IMG/VR virus record: IMGVR_UViG_3300045988_122031
Span: 29,757-93,756 of that record
DNA length: 64,000 bases
Direction: 5' to 3' (one strand)
Origin: a virus
Shown here piece by piece: positions 1 to 46,608 of this stretch (its first letter is position 1; every line of letters starts with the position of its first letter). The notes below the pieces were generated by a model. The model saw only the letters and a program-made list of their open reading frames with translations, was not told the DNA's origin and made no database searches. A program made the position numbers and the translations under genes.

Positions 1-1014
1 TGTAATGTAGCTCTTGTGGTTTCTGCACCATCAAGATCAATTGGATCGAATACTGCGACTGGATTAATCAACCCTGTACGAGATGTATTCCATTCAATAT
101 CTCTGATTGTTGTTTCGTAGAGGTCATCAGACCATTTCATCGCAAGCATATTTAAGGGGAATTTACTCGTTGCCCCAAGAGATTTCCCATACTGATAGTC
201 GTTATAAGTGAAAATCAGACCATCAACAGGATATTCATATGCCTCTGGATCAAATTTCTCAATATATTCTTCAACATTATCTCGATCAACAATCTGATGT
301 TCTACAACGTCAAATCCCTGCTCTGCAAGATATTTAAAACTATCAGCAATACTTGGCATTTCTTCTTCAGATACGCCATCAATTTTGACTAACTCAAATG
401 CTTTGTAAGCAAGTTTTCTTTCCTTTGCTACATTCGCATCTAACTGCCTGATTGTACCTGCTGCCAGATTTCTTGCGTTCTTGTATTTACCATGCAACGC
501 TTCATTGATTTTCTGGAAGTTTTCATAACTAATAACTGATTCGCCACGTACCTCAATACTACGCTTATCAGGAATCTCAAGAGGTAAATTGAAAATCATA
601 CGTGCTGTATGAGTCACATCTTCTCCAATTTCGCCATTTCCCCTTGTAATTGCTTGTTTTAAGCGTCCTTTTTCGTACCTTAGTACCACCGTCAAACCAT
701 CTTCTTTCCACGATAAAACACCAATTTTATCCGCAAGAAATTTTTTGACCTCATTGACATCCTTCGTCTTCTGAGCTGATAACATTGGGCGTGTATGCTT
801 TACTTTAGCCAGAGAATCAATTACAAATCCTTGAACGTGGTGGATGGGCGAATTATTCAAAACAACGCCAGAATCTCTCTCAAGTCGTTCTAAAGCAGCG
901 CATAAATCGTCAAATTCTTTATCTGAAATGATCGGATTATCCTCTGCGTAGTACGCATATGAAGCATCATTGATTCTGTCGATCAAGACATTCATTTCTT
1001 TCATATTCAGTTTC
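1..1014 (-). CDS. ligA: NAD-dependent DNA ligase (LigA), N-terminal part; the C-terminus lies beyond the window start
   Basis: Manual translation from the ATG at 1012-1014 gives MKLNMKEMNVLIDRINDASYAYYAEDNPIISDKEFDDL... (LigA Ia domain), then WKEDGLTVVL (adenylation KxDG) and ITRGNGEIGEDVT (LigA TRGDGxxGEDIT motif). It is absent from the ORF track because it is truncated. Confidence 0.85.
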
Positions 1015-1100
1015 ATAATTTTTGGATTTTCCTTTTCTTGTTTATATTGTTTAGTTAATTATTTTAATTTGTGTTTTCTATGTCTTTCAGTAACTGCCAA

Positions 1101-1739
1101 TTACTTCACTACATATATTTTTCTGTGCTGCTGCACATTTACTGTTTCGGAATGTGTTGATTTGAACACGTCTACATGCATTCCTTTTACTTTGCCTCCA
1201 CAATCTTCTGCCACAAAGATTGTATCGCCATATCCATCAATCTTAACTCTTGTTCCATAAGGGATAATGTTTTTATCAACCGCAATCGTATGATACGGTC
1301 GAGCAAATTTATGTCCTGCATGATTCCAAGAAATCTTAGATCCATATCCTTCAGAACACTCATAACATGGACAATATGCCGTGATCAAAAATGTTCCAAG
1401 CGAACTCTTTTCAAGTTCTCGCTTTCGCTTCAGCCGCTGTCGTTTAATTCGCAATCGTTTCTTTCGCAGTTTTTCTAATCGAATCTGTCTTGCTTGCTCT
1501 TCATCCGCTTTCTTACATTTCTGATAATGCTCATGAACATCTTTTAATGCAACGCTTTGGCTGATTGGATTGTCTGAAATCACATTGCCTTGCTTATTTT
1601 CTGCAACAGTTGTCTCTGTTGATAAGGTTGAAGCCTCTACCGAGGGTCGCTCCTCTGCTTTAACCGTGTGAGTCATAAAGCCCGAACACATTGCTAAAAA
1701 ACTAAACGAGACAACTTTCATTAAAAATCTTTTTCTCAT
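1101..1739 (-). CDS. Secreted 3D-domain (MltA/YuiC-like) cell-wall-binding/lytic protein with a Lys/Arg-rich coiled coil
   Basis: Signal-peptide-like N-terminus (MRKRFLMKVVSFSFLAMCSG). C-terminal ITAYCPCYECSEGYG...AVD...IPYGT...IDGYG...AEDCGGKVKG matches the 3D-domain pattern. RBS GGAAAGGAG lies 6 nt before the ATG at 1739; the track start at 1763 is probably too early. Confidence 0.6.
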   Translation of the reverse strand: MRKRFLMKVVSFSFLAMCSGFMTHTVKAEERPSVEASTLSTETTVAENKQGNVISDNPISQSVALKDVHEHYQKCKKADEEQARQIRLEKLRKKRLRIKRQRLKRKRELEKSSLGTFLITAYCPCYECSEGYGSKISWNHAGHKFARPYHTIAVDKNIIPYGTRVKIDGYGDTIFVAEDCGGKVKGMHVDVFKSTHSETVNVQQHRKIYVVK

Positions 1740-1769: not shown

Positions 1770-1807
1770 ATCTTATCATACTTCTTGCACCCTGTCAATA
1801 GGTGCAA
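1770..1807 (-). promoter_or_regulatory. Sigma-A-like promoter (TTGACA-17-TAAGAT) with the -35 box embedded in the palindrome TTGCACC-N10-GGTGCAA; copy 1 of a repeated element
   Basis: Minus strand reads tTGCACCTATTGACAGGGTGCAAgaagtatgaTAAGAT and sits 25 nt upstream of the 3D-domain gene. A near-identical element recurs at 43997-44034. Confidence 0.55.
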
Positions 1808-1816
1808 AGAATAAAG

Positions 1817-2041
1817 TTAATTTTTTAAGCTTAACCAGGTGCGCCTCTTATTATGATTTGTTACGATACATCTCTTAAACGCTTCTGGCTCTGCAAGGAG
1901 CGCAAATCTTTTCTTAGCTCGTGTTAACATCGTATATAGCATACAGTTATCAAGCAATTTGTAATGTGTGTTGTCAATGATACCAATTACAGTTTGAGCA
2001 GCCGATCCTTGAAGCTTATGCGTTGTTAATGCATATGCCAA
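1817..2041 (-). CDS. C-terminal fragment of the RecD-like helicase (motif VI region), separated from the main ORF by an in-frame TAA
   Basis: LAYALTTHKLQGSAAQTVI...YTMLTRAKK matches the SF1B/RecD C-terminal motifs. It begins with TTG immediately after the TAA at 2042-2044, in the same frame as 2042..4069. Confidence 0.5.
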   Translation of the reverse strand: MAYALTTHKLQGSAAQTVIGIIDNTHYKLLDNCMLYTMLTRAKKRFALLAEPEAFKRCIVTNHNKRRTWLSLKN

Positions 2042-4069
2042 TTAAAGTTGTCCTAACTGAGCAAAAGAATATTCAATCATCTTCTTATCCATGTCTGGAT
2101 TCATCATGGCGTGAACAACTTTCTTATCATAATCAATGCCAGTAATGTATCCAATATCTCCATTAAATGTGTTTCTTTCATAGTCATTACTGGTTTGAAG
2201 CACTTTATCTCCCACATAAAACTTCTTTGTTTTGCCATATGTAACAAACCTTGCATTGGATTTATTTTTATACAATTCTTTCTGAATTGCTACATTAAGT
2301 TCTTCTGTAGAGTTTATGCAACCTGACTTACGAGGAGAGATTACAACCACATTATCCATACCGTCTTGTTTAACACACGTCATGAACTGCTTTACAACCA
2401 AATTAAAAATATTCTCACGATTATTTCTGAAAATGTAAAACATATCATGCAGCTCTCCATGAACTTGTTTAGCACTAAAATCCTCAATTGGAGAAATTGC
2501 TCTACGCACTTTTCTAGCATCACTAAGAATACCAGACTTTTCTGCTTGTCTCATTGGCTTCGTTAATTGCACTGAATCTAACTCATCCATTTTGAGTAGA
2601 TCAGAGAAAATGTTACCATATCCAATTGGTGGTAACTGCATATGATCTCCGCTAATAATAATCTTTGTACCTGGACGAATTGCCAAAAGTAATTGATAGA
2701 ACAACCCTGCATTAACCATACTTGCTTCGTCTAAAAGAACTACATCAATTGGTAACGGATTGTCAGCATCGTGCATAAACGAGTCTACGCCTTGTGCTTC
2801 AAGTAATCGATGAATAGTTCTCGCTTCTAATCCTGTTGCTTCTTGGATTCTCTGTGCCGCCTTAGCAGATAACGCACATGCAGCAATGCTATAATTTCGT
2901 TTCTTATAACATCTGATAATTGGTTTTAATAAGGTAGTTTTACCCGTTCCAGCCTCACCACTAATTAAAACAACATTTGTCTGTAATGCAGTGTAGATGC
3001 CTTTGTTTTGCTCTTCGCTGAACGTAAAACCTTCTTCTTTTTCAACTTCAGCAATAACTTGTCCAATTTCGTTTACAGTGATTATCTCTTTTTTCTTGGT
3101 AGAATTAGTATCTCTGCGTTCTTGCAACAATGCCAGTATATTCATTTCTGTGTCATGGTACTTTTTCAAACCAATTAGTTCTCCACTAACATAGATGTCT
3201 GGAGGAAAATCATTTTCAACATAATCGTCAAATATATGTAAACATTCACCAACTGTTGCACTAACTTCTGATCGCAACGTGGCAATCGCCATATATGTAT
3301 GTCCGTCACTCTCGCCAAGATTCGTTAAATAATACGTCATAAAATAATCAAGTCGATACTTGGAATCTCTCAATTCTGGACGGATCTTTAAAGCAATATC
3401 ATCAACTTTCTTAAATCCAAGACCTCTGATCTTAGTTAAAATGTAAGGATTTGTGTTGATTTTATACTTTAACTTTTCTGGATCTGGCTCAGCTTCTACC
3501 AATTTCTTAATCATATTAAAAGTAATGCCATGAGGCTGTAGCATAACTACAACCTCGGAAATCACATAATTATTAATGATCTTCTCTCTGAGCTTCGCCC
3601 ATGTCTTGTTGCCAAGTCCTTTAATCATAGATGTGTCAATCGTCTTACATTTTCCTGCCATAACATCCTCAATAATATTTGGATATTCAGCAAGCAAGCT
3701 TTCAGCAATTGATTCTTTCGCTTGTGTTTTTAAAAACATTAACTGATCAGTCTGTGTTTTTGGAACGTCTGCAACAACCGAAATCGGTTTATATTGATAT
3801 TCATGATATTTTTGAGAATAAATACATGTCGCTTTTACATTATACTTTGTCCCAATATATAACTGTTGAACTTCTCCAACAAGTTTACTTGCAACATATT
3901 CTTTATCTCCTGAGTCATCAAATTTATTATCATTGTATGGACTGAATTGTGGTATTTGGTCTTTTGTACAAAACGCATAGATACCAAACATTGATTCTTC
4001 ATTATAAAATATCTGATATGTAGGAATCATTTCAAACTCGCATACCTTTCCGCATGTCTGACTCTCCAT
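2042..4069 (-). CDS. RecD/Pif1-like SF1B DNA helicase (AAA_30 type), N-terminal and central part, terminated by an in-frame TAA
   Basis: Walker A ISGEAGTGKTTLL, Walker B VVLLDEASMV and motif GDHMQLPPIG. The protein continues in frame into 1817..2041 after a single stop. Confidence 0.8.
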   Translation of the reverse strand: MESQTCGKVCEFEMIPTYQIFYNEESMFGIYAFCTKDQIPQFSPYNDNKFDDSGDKEYVASKLVGEVQQLYIGTKYNVKATCIYSQKYHEYQYKPISVVADVPKTQTDQLMFLKTQAKESIAESLLAEYPNIIEDVMAGKCKTIDTSMIKGLGNKTWAKLREKIINNYVISEVVVMLQPHGITFNMIKKLVEAEPDPEKLKYKINTNPYILTKIRGLGFKKVDDIALKIRPELRDSKYRLDYFMTYYLTNLGESDGHTYMAIATLRSEVSATVGECLHIFDDYVENDFPPDIYVSGELIGLKKYHDTEMNILALLQERRDTNSTKKKEIITVNEIGQVIAEVEKEEGFTFSEEQNKGIYTALQTNVVLISGEAGTGKTTLLKPIIRCYKKRNYSIAACALSAKAAQRIQEATGLEARTIHRLLEAQGVDSFMHDADNPLPIDVVLLDEASMVNAGLFYQLLLAIRPGTKIIISGDHMQLPPIGYGNIFSDLLKMDELDSVQLTKPMRQAEKSGILSDARKVRRAISPIEDFSAKQVHGELHDMFYIFRNNRENIFNLVVKQFMTCVKQDGMDNVVVISPRKSGCINSTEELNVAIQKELYKNKSNARFVTYGKTKKFYVGDKVLQTSNDYERNTFNGDIGYITGIDYDKKVVHAMMNPDMDKKMIEYSFAQLGQL

Positions 4070-40721: not shown

Positions 40722-41177
40722 TTAATTTCTTAATTCACAAGGTACTTTTACATTAAATGTATCTTCACGCTTGTATTTTCCTATCAAAATGGTAATAATG
40801 ACATCTGAATCTAACGTATCGACAAACGAATATATTCCATTTCGTTTTCTTTCAATACCAAACGAATCATATATACGCAATATCCACCTTTCTTTATCAA
40901 GCAAAGCTGAAACACTAAACATATAAATATTATCCAAATGTTTTTCATCGCAGATTGTATAATGAACTCTTGGCATTAACTCTCTTGTGTGTAATCGTAG
41001 ATCACCTACATCTTCATTAATCACTACATATGTTTTTTCTTTTCCATTTTGCTTATTTAATACTTTAATGCAGTCTCCTGAGTGTGGACTATATTCTATT
41101 TCATCTGGTTTAAAATATCTTTGTCCTAATTCCCCAAACTTTTGTATGTAAATACCCATATTTCTCCTTTCTAACAT
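40722..41177 (-). CDS. Hypothetical protein
   Basis: 151-aa ORF. Confidence 0.5.
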   Translation of the reverse strand: MLERRNMGIYIQKFGELGQRYFKPDEIEYSPHSGDCIKVLNKQNGKEKTYVVINEDVGDLRLHTRELMPRVHYTICDEKHLDNIYMFSVSALLDKERWILRIYDSFGIERKRNGIYSFVDTLDSDVIITILIGKYKREDTFNVKVPCELRN

Positions 41178-41242
41178 AATATTTACATTTTAATTTTGCA
41201 CAAATGCCTGTGCGAGTCATCATATATAATAAGGAAGAAACT

Positions 41243-41893
41243 CTACCCAATTATATTCTGGATCAGCTCATAATACTTTGTCCTGCCGACATACGACTTA
41301 TGTTCTGCATCTTTTAATTCTTTCTTCAAAGTACATATATCTTTCTGATTATCCATACAATTCTGCATCACTTCTATGTATCGAATACAATTCTTGATTT
41401 TTCTGTGTAATTCTTGTAAGGTTTTAAGATACCCAACAATCACTGCACGTTTCGCAGCATCAATCTTTTTAAACTCAATCGCATGAAGAATATCACTTCT
41501 GGCAGAATCGGCATATGATAATGCCTGCTCTAATTCAAACTTCTTTTCTCCTAATTGATCTGAGTCATATGCTAGAAGTCCTACTATAGCTCTTTCCTCA
41601 GTCTCTATATTGTCGATCAATGTATTATCACATTCCCAATCCATAAAGCAATTTCCATTACCCTTACGCATTATTTCACTAGATTCCATAGGTTTTCCAA
41701 CTTTACCTAGCTCAATTTCTCTGGCATGAAATCCGTCTTTCATCCACGTATATTTATGCTTCAAACCTAAAATGTGCTTTGCTTGTTTGGAGGTAAATTG
41801 AGTAGCTTCAGACTTACGGTTATCACGAACGTATCTATTTCTTGCATGATCTCTTTTCACATAGAACTCTTCATTCGTAATTATGTATTTCAT
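41243..41893 (-). CDS. Hypothetical protein
   Basis: 216-aa ORF. Confidence 0.5.
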   Translation of the reverse strand: MKYIITNEEFYVKRDHARNRYVRDNRKSEATQFTSKQAKHILGLKHKYTWMKDGFHAREIELGKVGKPMESSEIMRKGNGNCFMDWECDNTLIDNIETEERAIVGLLAYDSDQLGEKKFELEQALSYADSARSDILHAIEFKKIDAAKRAVIVGYLKTLQELHRKIKNCIRYIEVMQNCMDNQKDICTLKKELKDAEHKSYVGRTKYYELIQNIIG

Positions 41894-41939
41894 ACATCAC
41901 TCCTGTATTTAATTGTAGTTTTTTGGAAAAATTTTCATG

Positions 41940-42151
41940 TTGACGAACATGTTTAGAATTGTTATAATGATTTTAAGGATATTATTATCCTTTCAGATTA
42001 AACAATTCTAAATATCAAATTCGATTTTCTATCGTGCTGCCAACACGGTAGATTCAAAAAATCTTTTTTTGTTATCTATGATTTGTTTAGTTGAAATTTT
42101 TAGTTTGTGTGAAAGTAGAAGTTTTACCAAAGACTTCTGCTTTCTTTTTTA
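41940..42151 (+). ncRNA. Candidate plus-strand small RNA, from a consensus promoter to a strong intrinsic terminator (about 175 nt)
   Basis: TTGACG (41940-45), 17-bp spacer, extended -10 TGtTATAAT (41960-68). 5' hairpin AAGGATAttatTATCCTT. Terminator GAAAGTAGAAGT-(10 nt)-ACTTCTGCTTTC + TTTTTTATT (42111-42151). No RBS-preceded ORF in the transcript. Confidence 0.5.
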
Positions 42152-42452
42152 TTGTCTGTATTTTTATTCCAACATTGTATCTCTCTTTGTATGTAAATTG
42201 CAGGCATTTGATTATGTCAAATATGTCGTCCTGCCTAATATGAGAGAACAAATTCTCATCTTGAATAAATTCGATCCAATGATATGAAAGATCTTTATCT
42301 TTGCCATAGATCTTCATCTTTCTATCATCTGCTCGAATCTTATATTCACTCAGAAACCACGATGACATTTCTGATGAGTGTAAATCAAGTACATCAATAT
42401 GCATTTGATTTGATTGATTCGCTGCTAACATTTCTAATATTTGATTGTCCAT
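42087..42452 (-). CDS. Hypothetical protein (the 3' end is antisense to the candidate sRNA)
   Basis: 121-aa ORF. Confidence 0.5.
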   Translation of the reverse strand: MDNQILEMLAANQSNQMHIDVLDLHSSEMSSWFLSEYKIRADDRKMKIYGKDKDLSYHWIEFIQDENLFSHIRQDDIFDIIKCLQFTYKERYNVGIKIQTIKKKAEVFGKTSTFTQTKNFN

Positions 42453-42466
42453 ACATATACCTTCCT

Positions 42467-43495
42467 TTATTCTGCCATGATTTGATGTACACGATAATTC
42501 TTATAGTCCTCATCTTTATATAGGTAACCAATACTTTTACCGATTACCGTTTGACGATCACTAAATTGTTTCTTCTTTATTCTATATGATATATAATAAT
42601 TATAATAAAAATCAATTGCAATATCACTAAATTGACGTGCGATTACAGATCGTGCAATTCCTTCTTTTGATTTAATATAATATAAATCTGCAATTGCCTT
42701 GATATCCATTTTAGATTTTAAATATTGTATAAAACCAGAATTAATAACATCAATGGTTGTCAATTTTTCATAAGATAAAGTATTGCCTGTTAATTCTAAT
42801 TGAGACTGCACATTATTATATATCCTCTTTTGCTCTGCTTTATATTCTTCTATATTATTACATTTTTTTCGTGGTATTAATACAAAATCATCATATATAT
42901 TCGTATCTCCCATTTTCAATTTATATTCATTCAATGTCTCGATAAAATCTTTGGAGACTGGTTTCCCAAAAATTGTTAAATCATTTTGATTAATATCCGA
43001 GAATTTTAGATTTCTTAACTCCTTTCCATTTATCCCATTATATAAACTCACAATGTGAAATCTAGTATTCAATTTGGTATCGGCTGATGCATTGCACGAC
43101 ATCAGATTCGAAATAAACGCATTTATTTTATCTGGCGTAACATAATTAACATTAACTCTATTTGAAAAATATATATCAACTGCTAATTGCAAGTTTATAA
43201 ATTTATCATTAACAAATGGATTATATTTAATGTAATTTTGTTCATATGCATAAGTATACAATTTCACAAGCTGGTCATATCTTTTTTTAATAGAATTCAT
43301 ACTTTTGGTTTTTTTACCTCTAGTATCTGATAATATAGCCTTTTGGATTGTGCCTGGTGCATACGTTAACCCAGATTCATTGTCGTCCGCAATATCAGAA
43401 TCTAATAACCAATTCCATGTTGGGCGACGTGATTCTGATACGTGAGAATCTATATAATTTTGTATCAATTCTTTATTATTCATAACATTCTCCAT
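42467..43495 (-). CDS. Hypothetical 342-aa protein, downstream partner of the MazF-like gene in the AT-rich island
   Basis: Very AT-rich codon usage (N/K/Y/I-rich). No motif recognised with confidence. Confidence 0.55.
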   Translation of the reverse strand: MENVMNNKELIQNYIDSHVSESRRPTWNWLLDSDIADDNESGLTYAPGTIQKAILSDTRGKKTKSMNSIKKRYDQLVKLYTYAYEQNYIKYNPFVNDKFINLQLAVDIYFSNRVNVNYVTPDKINAFISNLMSCNASADTKLNTRFHIVSLYNGINGKELRNLKFSDINQNDLTIFGKPVSKDFIETLNEYKLKMGDTNIYDDFVLIPRKKCNNIEEYKAEQKRIYNNVQSQLELTGNTLSYEKLTTIDVINSGFIQYLKSKMDIKAIADLYYIKSKEGIARSVIARQFSDIAIDFYYNYYISYRIKKKQFSDRQTVIGKSIGYLYKDEDYKNYRVHQIMAE

Positions 43496-43497
43496 TT

Positions 43498-43947
43498 CTA
43501 GGATGCCATTGCATTCATGTACGATAACATGCCGTTTTGTATTAAAATGCCATGCCCTATTTTTAACATTAAAGATAGATCAGATATTCTTCCCCAATAC
43601 TCTAAAAGATTATTCTTTGGAATTGTTCTTCCTTGCTCTAAATACACCTGTGATACCATTTTTAATCCATTACTGGTATTTGGATAAATGGTCACATGTG
43701 TCGGTATCCAGTTCCTTAATTTTTTTGTAATTGGATACACGTTAATCTCAGTGCTTGTATTATTACAAATATTATTAGAATATACGATGACTGGTCTTTT
43801 CCCATGCAAGATGTGACTACCTTCAATTTTCGGCAAATCTGCAAAATATATTCCCCAAACTTGAGGATTTTGATATTTGCCATATACATATTCTTTTCTT
43901 TTTCTGTTATCGTTTCCTTTTCTTTCTTTGTTAGTATATCCGTTCAT
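43498..43947 (-). CDS. MazF/PemK/EndoA-family endoribonuclease toxin-like protein with a basic N-terminal extension
   Basis: GIYFADLPKIEGSHILHGKRPVIVYSNNICNNTSTEINVYPITKKLRNWIPTHVTIYPN...SQVYLEQGRTIPKNNL aligns motif-for-motif with EndoA/MazF (YFADL...GSEQ.G.RPV.V...PTHV...LEQIRTID). Start taken at MNGY (GAGGGA RBS); the track start is 43977. Confidence 0.7.
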   Translation of the reverse strand: MNGYTNKERKGNDNRKRKEYVYGKYQNPQVWGIYFADLPKIEGSHILHGKRPVIVYSNNICNNTSTEINVYPITKKLRNWIPTHVTIYPNTSNGLKMVSQVYLEQGRTIPKNNLLEYWGRISDLSLMLKIGHGILIQNGMLSYMNAMAS

Positions 43948-43996
43948 TTTACGTCCCTCAACTTTCCCCAGTTGCATTTTTTATTTTCATGAATTA

Positions 43997-44034
43997 AATA
44001 TACCATACTTTTTGCACCCTGTCAATAGGTGCAA
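43997..44034 (-). promoter_or_regulatory. Copy 2 of the palindromic promoter element (TTGACA-17-TATATT inside TTGCACC-N10-GGTGCAA)
   Basis: Minus strand reads tTGCACCTATTGACAGGGTGCAAaaagtatggTATATT, immediately upstream of the MazF-like gene. It is about 45 bp conserved with 1770-1810. Confidence 0.55.
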
Positions 44035-44106
44035 GAAAGAAAGTTAATTTTTATTGTGAACAAAGAATCTCTACATTTCTTATTATAATGCTACCATAGA
44101 ACAAAA

Positions 44107-44427
44107 TCAAGATATTTTTCGAACAGATGTTCTCTTTTTGTTCGAACACTTTACTTTGTGCTTACTTGGAAGGGGGAAATACTGTCTAACTTTATGAGGC
44201 TTATCCAGTTTCCATTTCTTTTCTTCAAAATCATAGTCACAAAAATCAAGCACTTCGTCCACACATCCATCATTATATTTGTAATCCACAATAACGGGAT
44301 ATGTTTTATATCTCATATAACGTGATGCATTATCTGGTTTTAGTGGCGGAATCTCGGCTGAAATCCACATAAGATTCTGGTTTGCTTTCTTTTCTTCCTT
44401 ATTTTGTCTAATCGTATTTATCTTCAT
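44107..44427 (-). CDS. Hypothetical protein
   Basis: 106-aa ORF. Confidence 0.5.
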   Translation of the reverse strand: MKINTIRQNKEEKKANQNLMWISAEIPPLKPDNASRYMRYKTYPVIVDYKYNDGCVDEVLDFCDYDFEEKKWKLDKPHKVRQYFPLPSKHKVKCSNKKRTSVRKIS

Positions 44428-44438
44428 ACAAAATTCTC

Positions 44439-45185
44439 CTATAAAATCCTAATAATTTGTTCGTAAATTGCAATCGCATTATCTCCTGGAAAGTTCTGGT
44501 TCACATGCATATGCCCAAAGAACCATTTTTGATAAATCACTTTGTCTTTTATTTGCTGTAAATAATCCGTTAACTTGTCAGATTTGTACACTCCTGATCC
44601 TTGATCCATTTGTCTTAAAACAGATGTGTATGGACTATGTGTAATAACGTAATCTACTTGGAAGTCATTTTTCTCTAAATTCATCACACCTTCTGCCATC
44701 TCTTTATCAGATGGCAATTCTTCTTTCCACCAGCTCACATGATTAATCCTAAACATTTTGTCATAATCTCTGTACCATTCATTAATTCTTGGATCGTCTG
44801 GCTCTAAAATTCCATCTTGCACATCATGGGAACTGGCACCGCCAAATGTAAAGAATTTCTTTCCTTGAATTTCAAACACCTGTCCACGCATAAGATGAAA
44901 TACAGAGTCTTTGATCTTGTGAATCTTTCCGCCACACCATTTCTCTACAGGATATTGATATAAGCGGTCGTAATTTTCATGATTCCCACATACAAACAAT
45001 GTAGTAAATGGCTTGTTATCTAACCATTCCAGATTATATCGTTCTTCTTTTGTGTCATGCCACAGTCCAAAATCTCCGCAGATAATCACATAATCATCTT
45101 TGGTTAACTCAACTCCCTCTGGGAAAGAACGACTGTTTAATCGAGTCATCCAATCCCCATGTGTATCTCCTGTTACAAATATCAT
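44439..45185 (-). CDS. Calcineurin-like metallophosphoesterase (lambda-PPase-type Ser/Thr phosphatase)
   Basis: GDTHGD, GDFGLW, GNHE and GHMH motifs in the canonical order. Confidence 0.75.
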   Translation of the reverse strand: MIFVTGDTHGDWMTRLNSRSFPEGVELTKDDYVIICGDFGLWHDTKEERYNLEWLDNKPFTTLFVCGNHENYDRLYQYPVEKWCGGKIHKIKDSVFHLMRGQVFEIQGKKFFTFGGASSHDVQDGILEPDDPRINEWYRDYDKMFRINHVSWWKEELPSDKEMAEGVMNLEKNDFQVDYVITHSPYTSVLRQMDQGSGVYKSDKLTDYLQQIKDKVIYQKWFFGHMHVNQNFPGDNAIAIYEQIIRIL

Positions 45186-46132
45186 ACAATTACTCCTTCC
45201 AATAACTCTTCTAATGCCTGCATATTATCTTCATGTACTCTATCATCTTGATCTGCATCATCTTTGCCAGTCTTATAAGCAAACTTGATAATCTCCATAA
45301 CTCTATCATAACTCACATTAACAACATTTTCCTTCAATCCGTTAAAAGCCCCACTGATAATTTCCTTGTATGTCTGCGCAATATCATCAAACAATACATG
45401 AGTTTCTTCCTCTGTGATTGTTGCATACAGAAATGTCATTGCAGGGCTACTATGATTCAATAATCTCATAAGTGTATACAATACGTTCTGATCATCTTTA
45501 TGATCGACAAGTGTCCAATACACAAAGTTCTTTCGTAATGTATGCGTACCAATATTGTCCTCAATTCCAACTGCTTTAGCACCTTTTTTAACAAAATCCA
45601 AAGCATTTGCTTCAGTCATGTGTCCTGATCCAGACTTACATGTTCCAAAAACATAATCATCCATTGGCACTTCGCCATCAATCTTGACATCATATTTAGT
45701 TCCTGCAACAGCTTCAAAGAAAATATCCACTGCTTCAGTTACCAAATCGTTAAAGTATACAGTTCTGAATTTCTTTGTTTTCTTTTCCTGCTTACGAGTC
45801 TTATCGTTTAATAAATCGCCCCATTTGAGTCTGACGATATCAGAGATACGATATGCTGTATTGTTTCCAACTGCAACCAAAAGATTGTTTCTGGCAGCTA
45901 CATATCGTTTGTACTCTGTGTACGATTTATCAATCTGGTCTCTAAAATATGCATTAAAGGCTGCAAATTTTTCTTTGTTCTTAATTGGATACACTAAAGA
46001 TGATACGCCTTTTTGTTTATTAGATCGAGTCCATTTAGGATTTCCGTCCTTACGTCTTTTGATCTTTGCTTCAGGTTCTTCTGCGTTATTATTGTTTGCT
46101 GTTTTAATAACTTCAAACTGTGTTGCTGCCAT
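45182..46132 (-). CDS. Tyrosine recombinase/integrase family protein
   Basis: YRISDIVRLKWGD (Arg I), GTHTLRKNF (H-x-L-R box) and LLNHSSPAMTFLYATI (His plus catalytic Tyr). Confidence 0.65.
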   Translation of the reverse strand: MAATQFEVIKTANNNNAEEPEAKIKRRKDGNPKWTRSNKQKGVSSLVYPIKNKEKFAAFNAYFRDQIDKSYTEYKRYVAARNNLLVAVGNNTAYRISDIVRLKWGDLLNDKTRKQEKKTKKFRTVYFNDLVTEAVDIFFEAVAGTKYDVKIDGEVPMDDYVFGTCKSGSGHMTEANALDFVKKGAKAVGIEDNIGTHTLRKNFVYWTLVDHKDDQNVLYTLMRLLNHSSPAMTFLYATITEEETHVLFDDIAQTYKEIISGAFNGLKENVVNVSYDRVMEIIKFAYKTGKDDADQDDRVHEDNMQALEELLEGVIV

Positions 46133-46158
46133 GATAATCTCTCCTCTCTTAATTATTC

Positions 46159-46491
46159 TTACACTCTCTTAATTACTTTTTCTATTTCCTGTGCCAACAG
46201 AAAATCATTTATTGCATTTTCATCGTCAGTAATCAATGTATATTTCCATACTGGGGAACCATGATATGATATATCTTCAACCTTAAATAATGCTCTTTTA
46301 CCAGTGTTATTTTCTCTATGATCTGACTCCAATAACTCTGTATGAATTCCCCAACTATCATATAGATGTCCATCGTATAGTATTTGAGCCGCAGCTATTA
46401 ATATATTATATTTACTCACATCAACCTCTGTATTCACTGTTCCGTATAATTTCATTGTTCCAATCTCCTCTCTAATTATTGCACTGTTCAC
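46159..46491 (-). CDS. Hypothetical protein
   Basis: 110-aa ORF. Confidence 0.5.
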   Translation of the reverse strand: MNSAIIREEIGTMKLYGTVNTEVDVSKYNILIAAAQILYDGHLYDSWGIHTELLESDHRENNTGKRALFKVEDISYHGSPVWKYTLITDDENAINDFLLAQEIEKVIKRV

Positions 46492-46608
46492 GTACTTCTG
46501 GTCTAATTTCTACTTCGATTAATTCCATAATTCTTACTCCTATTCTCTAAATTTAGGCAAAATAAAAAGAAGCCATAAGCTTCTCAATCTCATTCTGTTA
46601 TTCAATTT

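Follow-up and report, generated by a model that had tools for sequence, protein, structure and literature searches.

In the Bacillus phage SPbeta, the repressor MrpR is encoded by the last gene of the sro operon and binds a repeated element at ten SPbeta promoters; the operon also contains yopM, which acts on MazE/MazF (PMC10516654). In phi3T, phi3T_93 binds MazE and frees the host MazF, which degrades phage mRNAs so that lysogeny is favoured (PMC10769878; bioRxiv 10.1101/2025.11.27.690993). LexA controls the antirepressor Sar, and the box that monomeric SroF binds is asymmetric and 26 bp long (bioRxiv 10.1101/2025.11.27.690993). Knowledge of MrpR/SroF-type repressors is recent and comes solely from SPbeta-like phages of Bacillus, in which lysis-lysogeny control passes through host MazEF. 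Here we analysed a stretch of 64,000 nucleotides (nt) of viral DNA (IMG/VR record IMGVR_UViG_3300045988_122031, positions 29,757 to 93,756; referred to as the window), in which a MazF-like gene is directly followed by the gene of a putative recombinase-derived regulator, called the partner below.

The locus appears to be a conserved three-gene operon, comprising the mazF-like gene, an mrpR/sroF-like pseudo-recombinase gene (the partner) and a gene for a protein of 121 amino acids (aa), with two tandem predicted sigma-A-type promoters, P1 and P2. In our preferred reading, to which we assign a probability of about one half, it is an autoregulated operon that combines a recombinase-derived regulator with a MazF toxin, analogous to the sro operon of SPbeta. 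The likeness to the SPbeta/phi3T sro operon (yopMNOPQR = sroA-F) covers a regulator with a recombinase fold (CB plus CAT domain) and without the catalytic arginines, its place towards the end of an operon that has an integrase-like gene upstream (in a different arrangement here), in a large Firmicutes phage, a repeated cis element at its own and at other promoters, and the tie of the operon to MazF. The sro switch also receives an SOS/LexA input, and the window has a LexA-box core at P1 through which such an input might act. Unlike sro, the operon in the window encodes a MazF-family toxin itself, and it has no homologue of YopQ/SroE, YopM/phi3T_93, arbitrium components or Sar.

A second likeness, taken from annotation, is that to CST027-CST031 of the large clostridial phage c-st of Clostridium botulinum, where the MazF-like gene has strong tandem promoters and precedes the genes of YopQ and YopR homologues and then a small gene. 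The c-st MazF-like protein differs in its length (220 aa) and C-terminal extension and is 32% identical to that of the window; CST028 and the YopQ homologue separate the MazF-like gene from the YopR-homologue gene, and this YopR homologue is closer to SPbeta YopR than the partner is. An earlier note on this DNA, made from the sequence alone, had not recognised the architecture as a described system. This was right only in part: c-st has a MazF-like gene near YopQ/YopR homologues, and in the sro operon of SPbeta and phi3T a repressor of this kind is already linked to a protein of the MazF pathway (PMC10516654, PMC10769878). By sequence, one component falls into the MazF family and the other among pseudo-recombinases of the MrpR/SroF type, both known. 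We found no description, in the literature searched, of their pairing in one operon, of an operator, toxin and regulator evolving as a cassette, or of a concerted operator switch at unlinked promoters.

All long open reading frames (ORFs) of the window lie on the minus strand. The order along transcription is a 316-aa recombinase, a metallophosphoesterase, a 106-aa orphan, the MazF-like protein, the 338/342-aa partner and the 121-aa orphan. The operon comprises the following features:

44082..44146, minus strand: promoter P1 (TTGATT 44110-44105, 17-nt spacer, TATAAT 44087-44082)
43997..44034, minus strand: promoter P2 with an operator-like dyad; hexamers conserved in all lineages
43498..43947, minus strand: mazF-like gene, 149 aa; basic low-complexity N-terminal extension and PemK/MazF core
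42467..43483, minus strand: partner gene, 338 aa; an alternative ATG at 43495 would give 342 aa
42087..42452, minus strand: third gene of the operon, 121 aa; no recognisable family

The MazF-like protein and its partner

The product of 43498..43947 matched the Pfam family PemK_toxin (PF02452) with E 2e-15 and 57.4 bits (cut-off 23.1), as well as phrog_1936, the PHROG family "MazF-like growth inhibitor". Matches to solved PemK/EndoA/MazF chains ranged from E 3e-10 to 3.5e-8 (PemK 4hke, 3e-10; EndoA 4mdx, 2e-8). Arg51 aligned with R25 and Thr74 with T48 of EndoA, and the LEQxRT motif was retained. Across seven lineages of related phages the catalytic Arg was invariant, and Thr was kept or replaced by Ser (in L011 and L012). 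Judged by these alignments, the protein is a homologue of the MazF/PemK-family endoribonucleases with its catalytic residues in place. We took ATG 43947 as its start codon, since the MNGYT start is fixed among relatives and is preceded by a GAGGGA ribosome-binding site. The basic extension does not reach the 45 aa given in the earlier note: it amounts to about 25-30 aa relative to PemK/EndoA, and its length and sequence differ among relatives.

Other parts of that note stood. Both ORFs are real and lie on the minus strand, the MazF/EndoA assignment was borne out by the profile and PDB matches, the toxin gene comes first, and no MazE/PemI-type product is encoded upstream. More broadly, none of the 106-aa, 338-aa and 121-aa products matched a MazE/PemI-type (RHH or AbrB) antitoxin in Pfam, NCBIfam or PADLOC. 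Compared with MazEF and EndoAI-EndoA (ydcDE), the locus shares the toxin fold, the catalytic Arg/Thr, a motif-for-motif alignment and a palindrome over the promoter, here a putative operator. Unlike these modules, it has no MazE/RHH/AbrB antitoxin, the toxin gene comes first and the toxin carries the basic N-terminal extension; the candidate neutraliser is either the 338-aa recombinase-fold protein or the orphan 121-aa protein.

For the partner, which the earlier note had given as an uncharacterised protein of 342 aa, the ORF was confirmed with a different start: ATG 43483 is the most likely one (338 aa), with a GGAG ribosome-binding site and relatives that begin with MNNKE. The family is small. 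Homologues formed seven clusters in 5.8 billion proteins, and an exhaustive hidden Markov model scan of 1.84 billion representative proteins returned five hits, all from the partner family itself. Near-identity and protein searches of GenBank phages gave no match, nor did a PDB sequence search with the family profile. PHROG_1 (integrase) matched residues 4-214 (E 1.8e-10), and the Pfam integrase SAM-like domain matched residues 61-98 weakly. A first AlphaFold2 model from eight sequences was poor (pLDDT 55.8), with matches to the CB domain only. After two divergent members had been added, pLDDT rose to 80.3 with pTM 0.69, and the model showed a tyrosine-recombinase fold with CB and CAT domains.

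The partner is far from uncharacterised at the family level. We compared the partner family (13 sequences) by hhalign with a reference profile of 11 YopR/MrpR/SroF homologues, from SPbeta, phi3T, c-st, E3, Tsamsa, FADO, BcoS-136, Sundance, Kirov and two staphylococcal-type phages, and obtained 93.3% probability and E 2.6e-7 over 192 columns. With genuine integrases of the YopP type the probability was 28%, and with the family of the neighbouring 316-aa recombinase it was 0.2%. Matches to single YopR sequences were weak, and significance was reached only with family profiles on both sides; identity to YopR is about 16%. A local duplication of the 316-aa integrase gene was rejected as the origin of the partner, as hhalign showed no relation between the two.

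Table 3 of Kohm et al. (PMC10516654) served to place the catalytic positions in the hhalign alignment to MrpR. Partner G150-I151-N152-G153 corresponds to MrpR G136-V137-S138-G139 (position of Cre R173), so that Arg-I is absent; I244/D245 corresponds to MrpR N254 (Cre H289), so that the catalytic His is absent; and I247/N248 corresponds to MrpR V257/R258 (Cre R292), so that Arg-II is absent. No member of the partner family has an Arg at either arginine position. E155 (MrpR E144) and the hairpin K174 (MrpR K169, Cre K201) are retained, and the motif FEG(I/V)xG...E(L/I)xxLK is common to the partner and MrpR. Since both catalytic arginines and the histidine have been lost, the partner cannot be a recombinase. 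The profile match and the catalytic register indicate that it is a catalytically dead recombinase-fold protein and a divergent homologue of the MrpR/YopR/SroF phage repressors.

As a separate observation, the SPBc2 record (L019, NC_001884, 21281-22258) has Glu at YopR residue 136 (LFEEVSG). Kohm et al. (PMC10516654) described this substitution, G136E, as the heat-sensitive c2 allele, and the reference therefore represents a mutant repressor.

Promoters, dyads and the variable cassette

The claim of a dedicated, palindrome-embedded promoter held up on closer analysis. P2 is the best minus-strand match in the region, with a -35 TTGACA (44025-44020), a 17-nt spacer and an extended -10 TGgTATATT (to 43997). 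Its dyad, TTGCACC-N9-GGTGCAA (44012-44034), is centred on the G of the -35 TTGACA. Every one of the seven lineages has a perfect inverted repeat here with arms of 5-10 bp and the same G centre, and the arm sequence differs between lineages; by comparison, a perfect arm of at least 5 bp arose at 1.2% of random centres.

The same element occurs a second time in the window:

1774..1825, minus strand: second promoter/operator copy, 52 nt, 90% identical; drives the secreted peptidase-like gene 1101-1739

The 23-mer of P2 is repeated exactly at 1785-1807, where no match is expected by chance (0). The product of 1101-1739 (minus strand) carries a signal peptide (MRKRFLMKVVSFSFLAMCSGFMTHTVKA), its C-terminal domain is peptidase-like, and the gene looks like a co-regulated moron. 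The exact window-type 23-mer was found in 87 IMG/VR stretches. The genes located 3' of the sites analysed were the mazF operon (about 43), the secreted peptidase-like gene (about 34) and, in three contigs, a 130-aa gene. This third promoter, which precedes the 130-aa gene (MLKKKMKKERIYTVKNTNDF...) and then a 287-aa gene, was seen only in L055, L064 and L097 (117858, 125498 and 3300029316_000125) and not in the window.

Contigs of a second type (L007) made it possible to compare the two promoters. Their peptidase-like gene is 92-96% identical to that of the window, and its promoter carries the L007-type dyad ATATCTTTAAATGCTATTGACAAGCACATAAAGATAT, which is also the dyad at the L007-type mazF promoter; window-type contigs have TTGCACC...GGTGCAA at both promoters. 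The L011-type dyad was not found in IMG/VR. The dyad switches jointly, and in step with one cassette, at two loci separated by about 42 kb, which points to a trans-acting sequence-specific factor that the cassette itself would encode. The pseudo-recombinase is the obvious candidate for this dyad-binding factor, and MazF or a MazF-partner complex is the alternative.

The promoter and the two genes behind it also diverge together. Seven lineages could be distinguished, with partner identities of 34-73% between them, among contigs of 82-169 kb from viromes and metagenomes. An alignment of the window with L008 gave 94-99% nucleotide identity for the flanks and 54-78% over 44050-42500, with the minimum inside the partner gene. 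This trough contains exactly P2, mazF and the partner gene, and the 121-aa gene lies outside it. The partner was the fastest-evolving protein in every pairwise comparison; between the window and the L007 type, protein identity is 93% for the recombinase, 93% for the 106-aa protein, 92% for the 121-aa protein, 71% for MazF and 55% for the partner. These sequence comparisons show promoter-operator, mazF and partner behaving as one hypervariable allelic cassette in a near-identical backbone.

Every contig with a partner homologue has a MazF-like gene immediately upstream and a gene for 106-135 aa immediately downstream. Such strict co-occurrence in seven lineages, together with the co-divergence as a cassette, suggests the functional coupling of the two proteins that the earlier note had proposed. 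Its view of the island as a recently acquired moron had to be abandoned, because the pair is syntenic at a conserved position in all relatives examined. The island is indeed AT-rich, with a GC content of 29.4%, the mean of the window being 33.8% (z about -2.5, within the lowest 1.6% of 1.5-kb segments); the main source is the partner gene (27.5%), and mazF itself is at 32.2%. We therefore attribute both its AT-richness and its divergence to a hypervariable allelic cassette and not to an insertion.

This arrangement resembles the imm regions of heteroimmune temperate phages, where a divergent regulator and operator cassette likewise lies in a near-identical backbone and matching operator changes occur at distant promoters. 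In imm regions the regulator is of the CI/Cro helix-turn-helix type, whereas here it would be recombinase-derived, and the cassette of the window includes a toxin gene.

P1 lies 85 nt upstream of P2, is conserved in all lineages and is preceded by the inverted repeat TTCGAACA-N13-TGTTCGAA (44118-44146). Within this repeat, 8 nt 5' of the P1 -35, is the sole GAAC-N4-GTTC of the window (44121-44132), giving the candidate LexA site GAACATCTGTTCG; we take GAAC-N4-GTTC to be the core of the Firmicutes LexA box (Cheo box). Because a single occurrence is not significant on its own (at least one in 40% of shuffles), the case for a LexA core rests on positional conservation: GAAC and GTTCG are invariant over the seven lineages while N4 varies, and the element persists in L011 and L012, which do not have the overlapping 106-aa ORF. 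An SOS input may thus reach the operon through the LexA-box core of P1.

Proposed circuit and competing explanations

In the preferred reading, the pseudo-recombinase would be a sequence-specific DNA-binding protein for the dyad, with two subunits on the inverted arms, as recombinases sit on their core sites. Through the dyad it would autoregulate the operon together with a small regulon, consisting of the secreted peptidase-like gene and, in some genomes, the 130-aa gene. MazF would be produced with the regulator from the same transcript and restrained either by the partner, which we favour owing to the co-divergence, or by the invariant 121-aa protein as the alternative. Active MazF would cut mRNAs and so bias the infection or maintenance programme, and P1 with its LexA-box core might add an SOS input. 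The phage would thereby supply its own MazF instead of freeing that of the host, unlike SPbeta and phi3T with YopM/phi3T_93.

The locus extends the recombinase-fold repressor superfamily to an abundant group of uncultured gut phages of roughly 85-165 kb, with a MazF-type toxin encoded inside the regulator operon and evolving with regulator and operator as a swappable cassette. If the proposed interactions are true, it would represent a natural toxin hard-wired into a phage regulatory switch and possibly a new type of antitoxin. It would also offer orthogonal operator/regulator pairs, of which seven distinct specificities are visible, for use as genetic parts.

Several points weigh against this reading. 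At sro the cis element is an asymmetric 26-bp box or a 15-bp SPBRE, whereas here a dyad covers the -35. Its perfect arms stand 9 to 19 nt apart depending on the lineage, a variation that sits poorly with a rigid homologous dimer. With only two to three dyad sites per genome, against ten for MrpR, the term "master repressor" is unsupported. SOS induction of a repressor operon is counter-intuitive, and neither a YopQ/SroE homologue nor a Sar-like antirepressor was found. The structural model of the partner rests on just 10 sequences. UACAU, the Firmicutes MazF motif, is not depleted on the phage sense strand, a result that says nothing on cleavage specificity. SPbeta-like phages are temperate. 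For the phage of the window, protein alignment and the 23-mer revealed no host or prophage copy in 185,579 GTDB species-representative bacterial genomes, and a temperate lifestyle is thus unproven.

The strongest competitor, which we hold as possible but clearly less probable, is a self-contained toxin-antitoxin (TA), addiction or abortive infection module. Here MazF would be the toxin, and the pseudo-recombinase or the 121-aa protein a new antitoxin that autorepresses at the palindrome. The mechanism overlaps that of the preferred reading, and the difference lies in the biological role, which would be extrachromosomal prophage maintenance or phage exclusion and not the lysis-lysogeny decision. 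Cognate TA pairs that have autoregulatory palindromes typically show such a co-divergence of toxin, partner and operator as one cassette; the neighbourhood is similar in c-st, a plasmid prophage, and relatives of the window phage also carry Phd/YoeB modules. The LexA-box core upstream of the operon fits as well, LexA-controlled TA modules such as dinJ-yafQ and symER being known. Against such a module speak the toxin-first order, the lack of a known antitoxin domain and of any PADLOC match, and the same operator at the gene of an unrelated secreted protein, which is unusual for a TA module.

A more far-reaching proposal, which we regard as doubtful, merges the two roles. In it the recombinase-derived repressor would be at once the operator-specific regulator and the cognate antitoxin of the phage MazF, so that each cassette would define an "immunity type". 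A resident phage would produce the regulator and so silence MazF. Superinfection or an inducing signal, either SOS acting at the LexA-box promoter or the loss of the regulator, would free it, leading to transcript destruction with lysis, dormancy or exclusion as the outcome. If this were true, the partner would found a new class of type II antitoxin, and the locus would act as an in-built form of the host-MazF circuit used by arbitrium phages. A role of the MazF-like gene in host shut-off, inter-phage competition or abortive infection is possible.

That MazF is a stand-alone RNase for host takeover or mRNA turnover in the lytic cycle, adjacent to the pseudo-recombinase through shared transcription only, seems unlikely to us. 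Solitary genes of the "MazF-like growth inhibitor" type, of which Firmicutes phages have many, do occur in 69 phage records, for example in the structural region of PMBT24, in replication regions of NatCom phages and beside a genuine integrase in TR-TP2. For the locus in the window, however, the co-occurrence of the partner is invariant in seven lineages, down to 34% partner identity, and the divergence trough encloses exactly promoter, mazF and partner. Thomasclavelia phage TR-TP2 (gp7-gp8; L225, 4489-5809) appeared to offer a parallel pair, as this phage of about 100 kb also has a MazF-like gene followed by a gene for a tyrosine-recombinase fold. Unlike the partner, gp8 retains all catalytic motifs (MRYGE, HCLRHS, LGHS, YSH), and its alignment to true integrases reaches 97%; the pair was rejected as a parallel since gp8 is a genuine XerC/D-type integrase.

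Least probable of all, in our estimate, are the explanations in which the partner has another role and the dyads are RNA or DNA hairpins in P1 transcripts, sites for another factor, or recombination sites of the 316-aa recombinase. The arms do covary so that pairing is kept around a loop of 9 to 19 nt, a hairpin forms from the dyad when the predicted P1 leader is folded, and inverted arms about a short spacer resemble recombinase core sites. A hairpin, however, requires no sequence match between loci, whereas identical arms stand at unlinked promoters within a genome and are replaced at both with the cassette, while the 316-aa recombinase stays 93-95% identical; the P1 leader fold is not significant (z -1.65) and has no Rfam match, and recombination between two direct copies would delete about 42 kb. 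The dyads were rejected as sites of the active recombinase, since this enzyme is 93-95% identical between lineages with completely different dyads.

Neighbouring genes and further observations

Upstream of the operon the window contains three genes:

44107..44427, minus strand: 106-aa gene, conserved but optional; no family
44439-45185, minus strand: metallophosphoesterase gene, 248 aa; optional in relatives
45182..46132, minus strand: tyrosine recombinase, 316 aa; intact catalytic set YRISD, KKTKK, HTLR, NHS, LY

The recombinase matched Pfam Phage_integrase (E 1e-13) and phrog_216 (E 3.5e-29), and a recombinase of 316-329 aa is present upstream in every lineage. The metallophosphoesterase and the 106-aa gene are optional, the latter missing in L011 and L012. 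The metallophosphoesterase shows a presence/absence polymorphism beside the operon: several relatives have a 37-aa remnant ORF and others none (window compared with L007-L010).

The 121-aa and 106-aa products matched no family in Pfam, PHROG, PADLOC or NCBIfam and were dissimilar to c-st CST031, Tsamsa gp95, FADO gp050 and phi3T Sar. None of the five proteins of the block matched a PADLOC model of a known defence system at E <= 0.1, and Rfam gave no RNA family in 41000-46500. The genomes of the group carry Bro-N/ANT and P22-type antirepressor-like genes as well as Phd/YoeB modules; in relatives a Phd/YoeB pair lies a few kb 5' of the recombinase (L006 1-241; L011 982-1491), and it was not seen in the corresponding part of the window.

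At the other end of the window, the RecD-like helicase gene (phrog_4412, 1822-4069, minus strand) contains an in-frame TAA at 2042-2044, past which the frame runs for 73 more codons through helicase motif VI (LAYALTTHKLQGS...). This codon is CAA (Gln) in 51 of the 51 readable related IMG/VR contigs. The TAA thus reflects either a nonsense mutation private to this sequence or an error of sequencing. Palindromic hexamers are strongly depleted on the sense strand (CTGCAG, 0 against 9.5 expected; TACGTA, 0 against 7.8; AACGTT, 3 against 12.6), which suggests restriction avoidance. An ORF resembling NAD-dependent DNA ligases (1-1016, minus strand) lies directly downstream of the gene for the peptidase-like protein and leaves the end of the window; c-st likewise has an NAD-dependent ligase, adjoining its YopR module.

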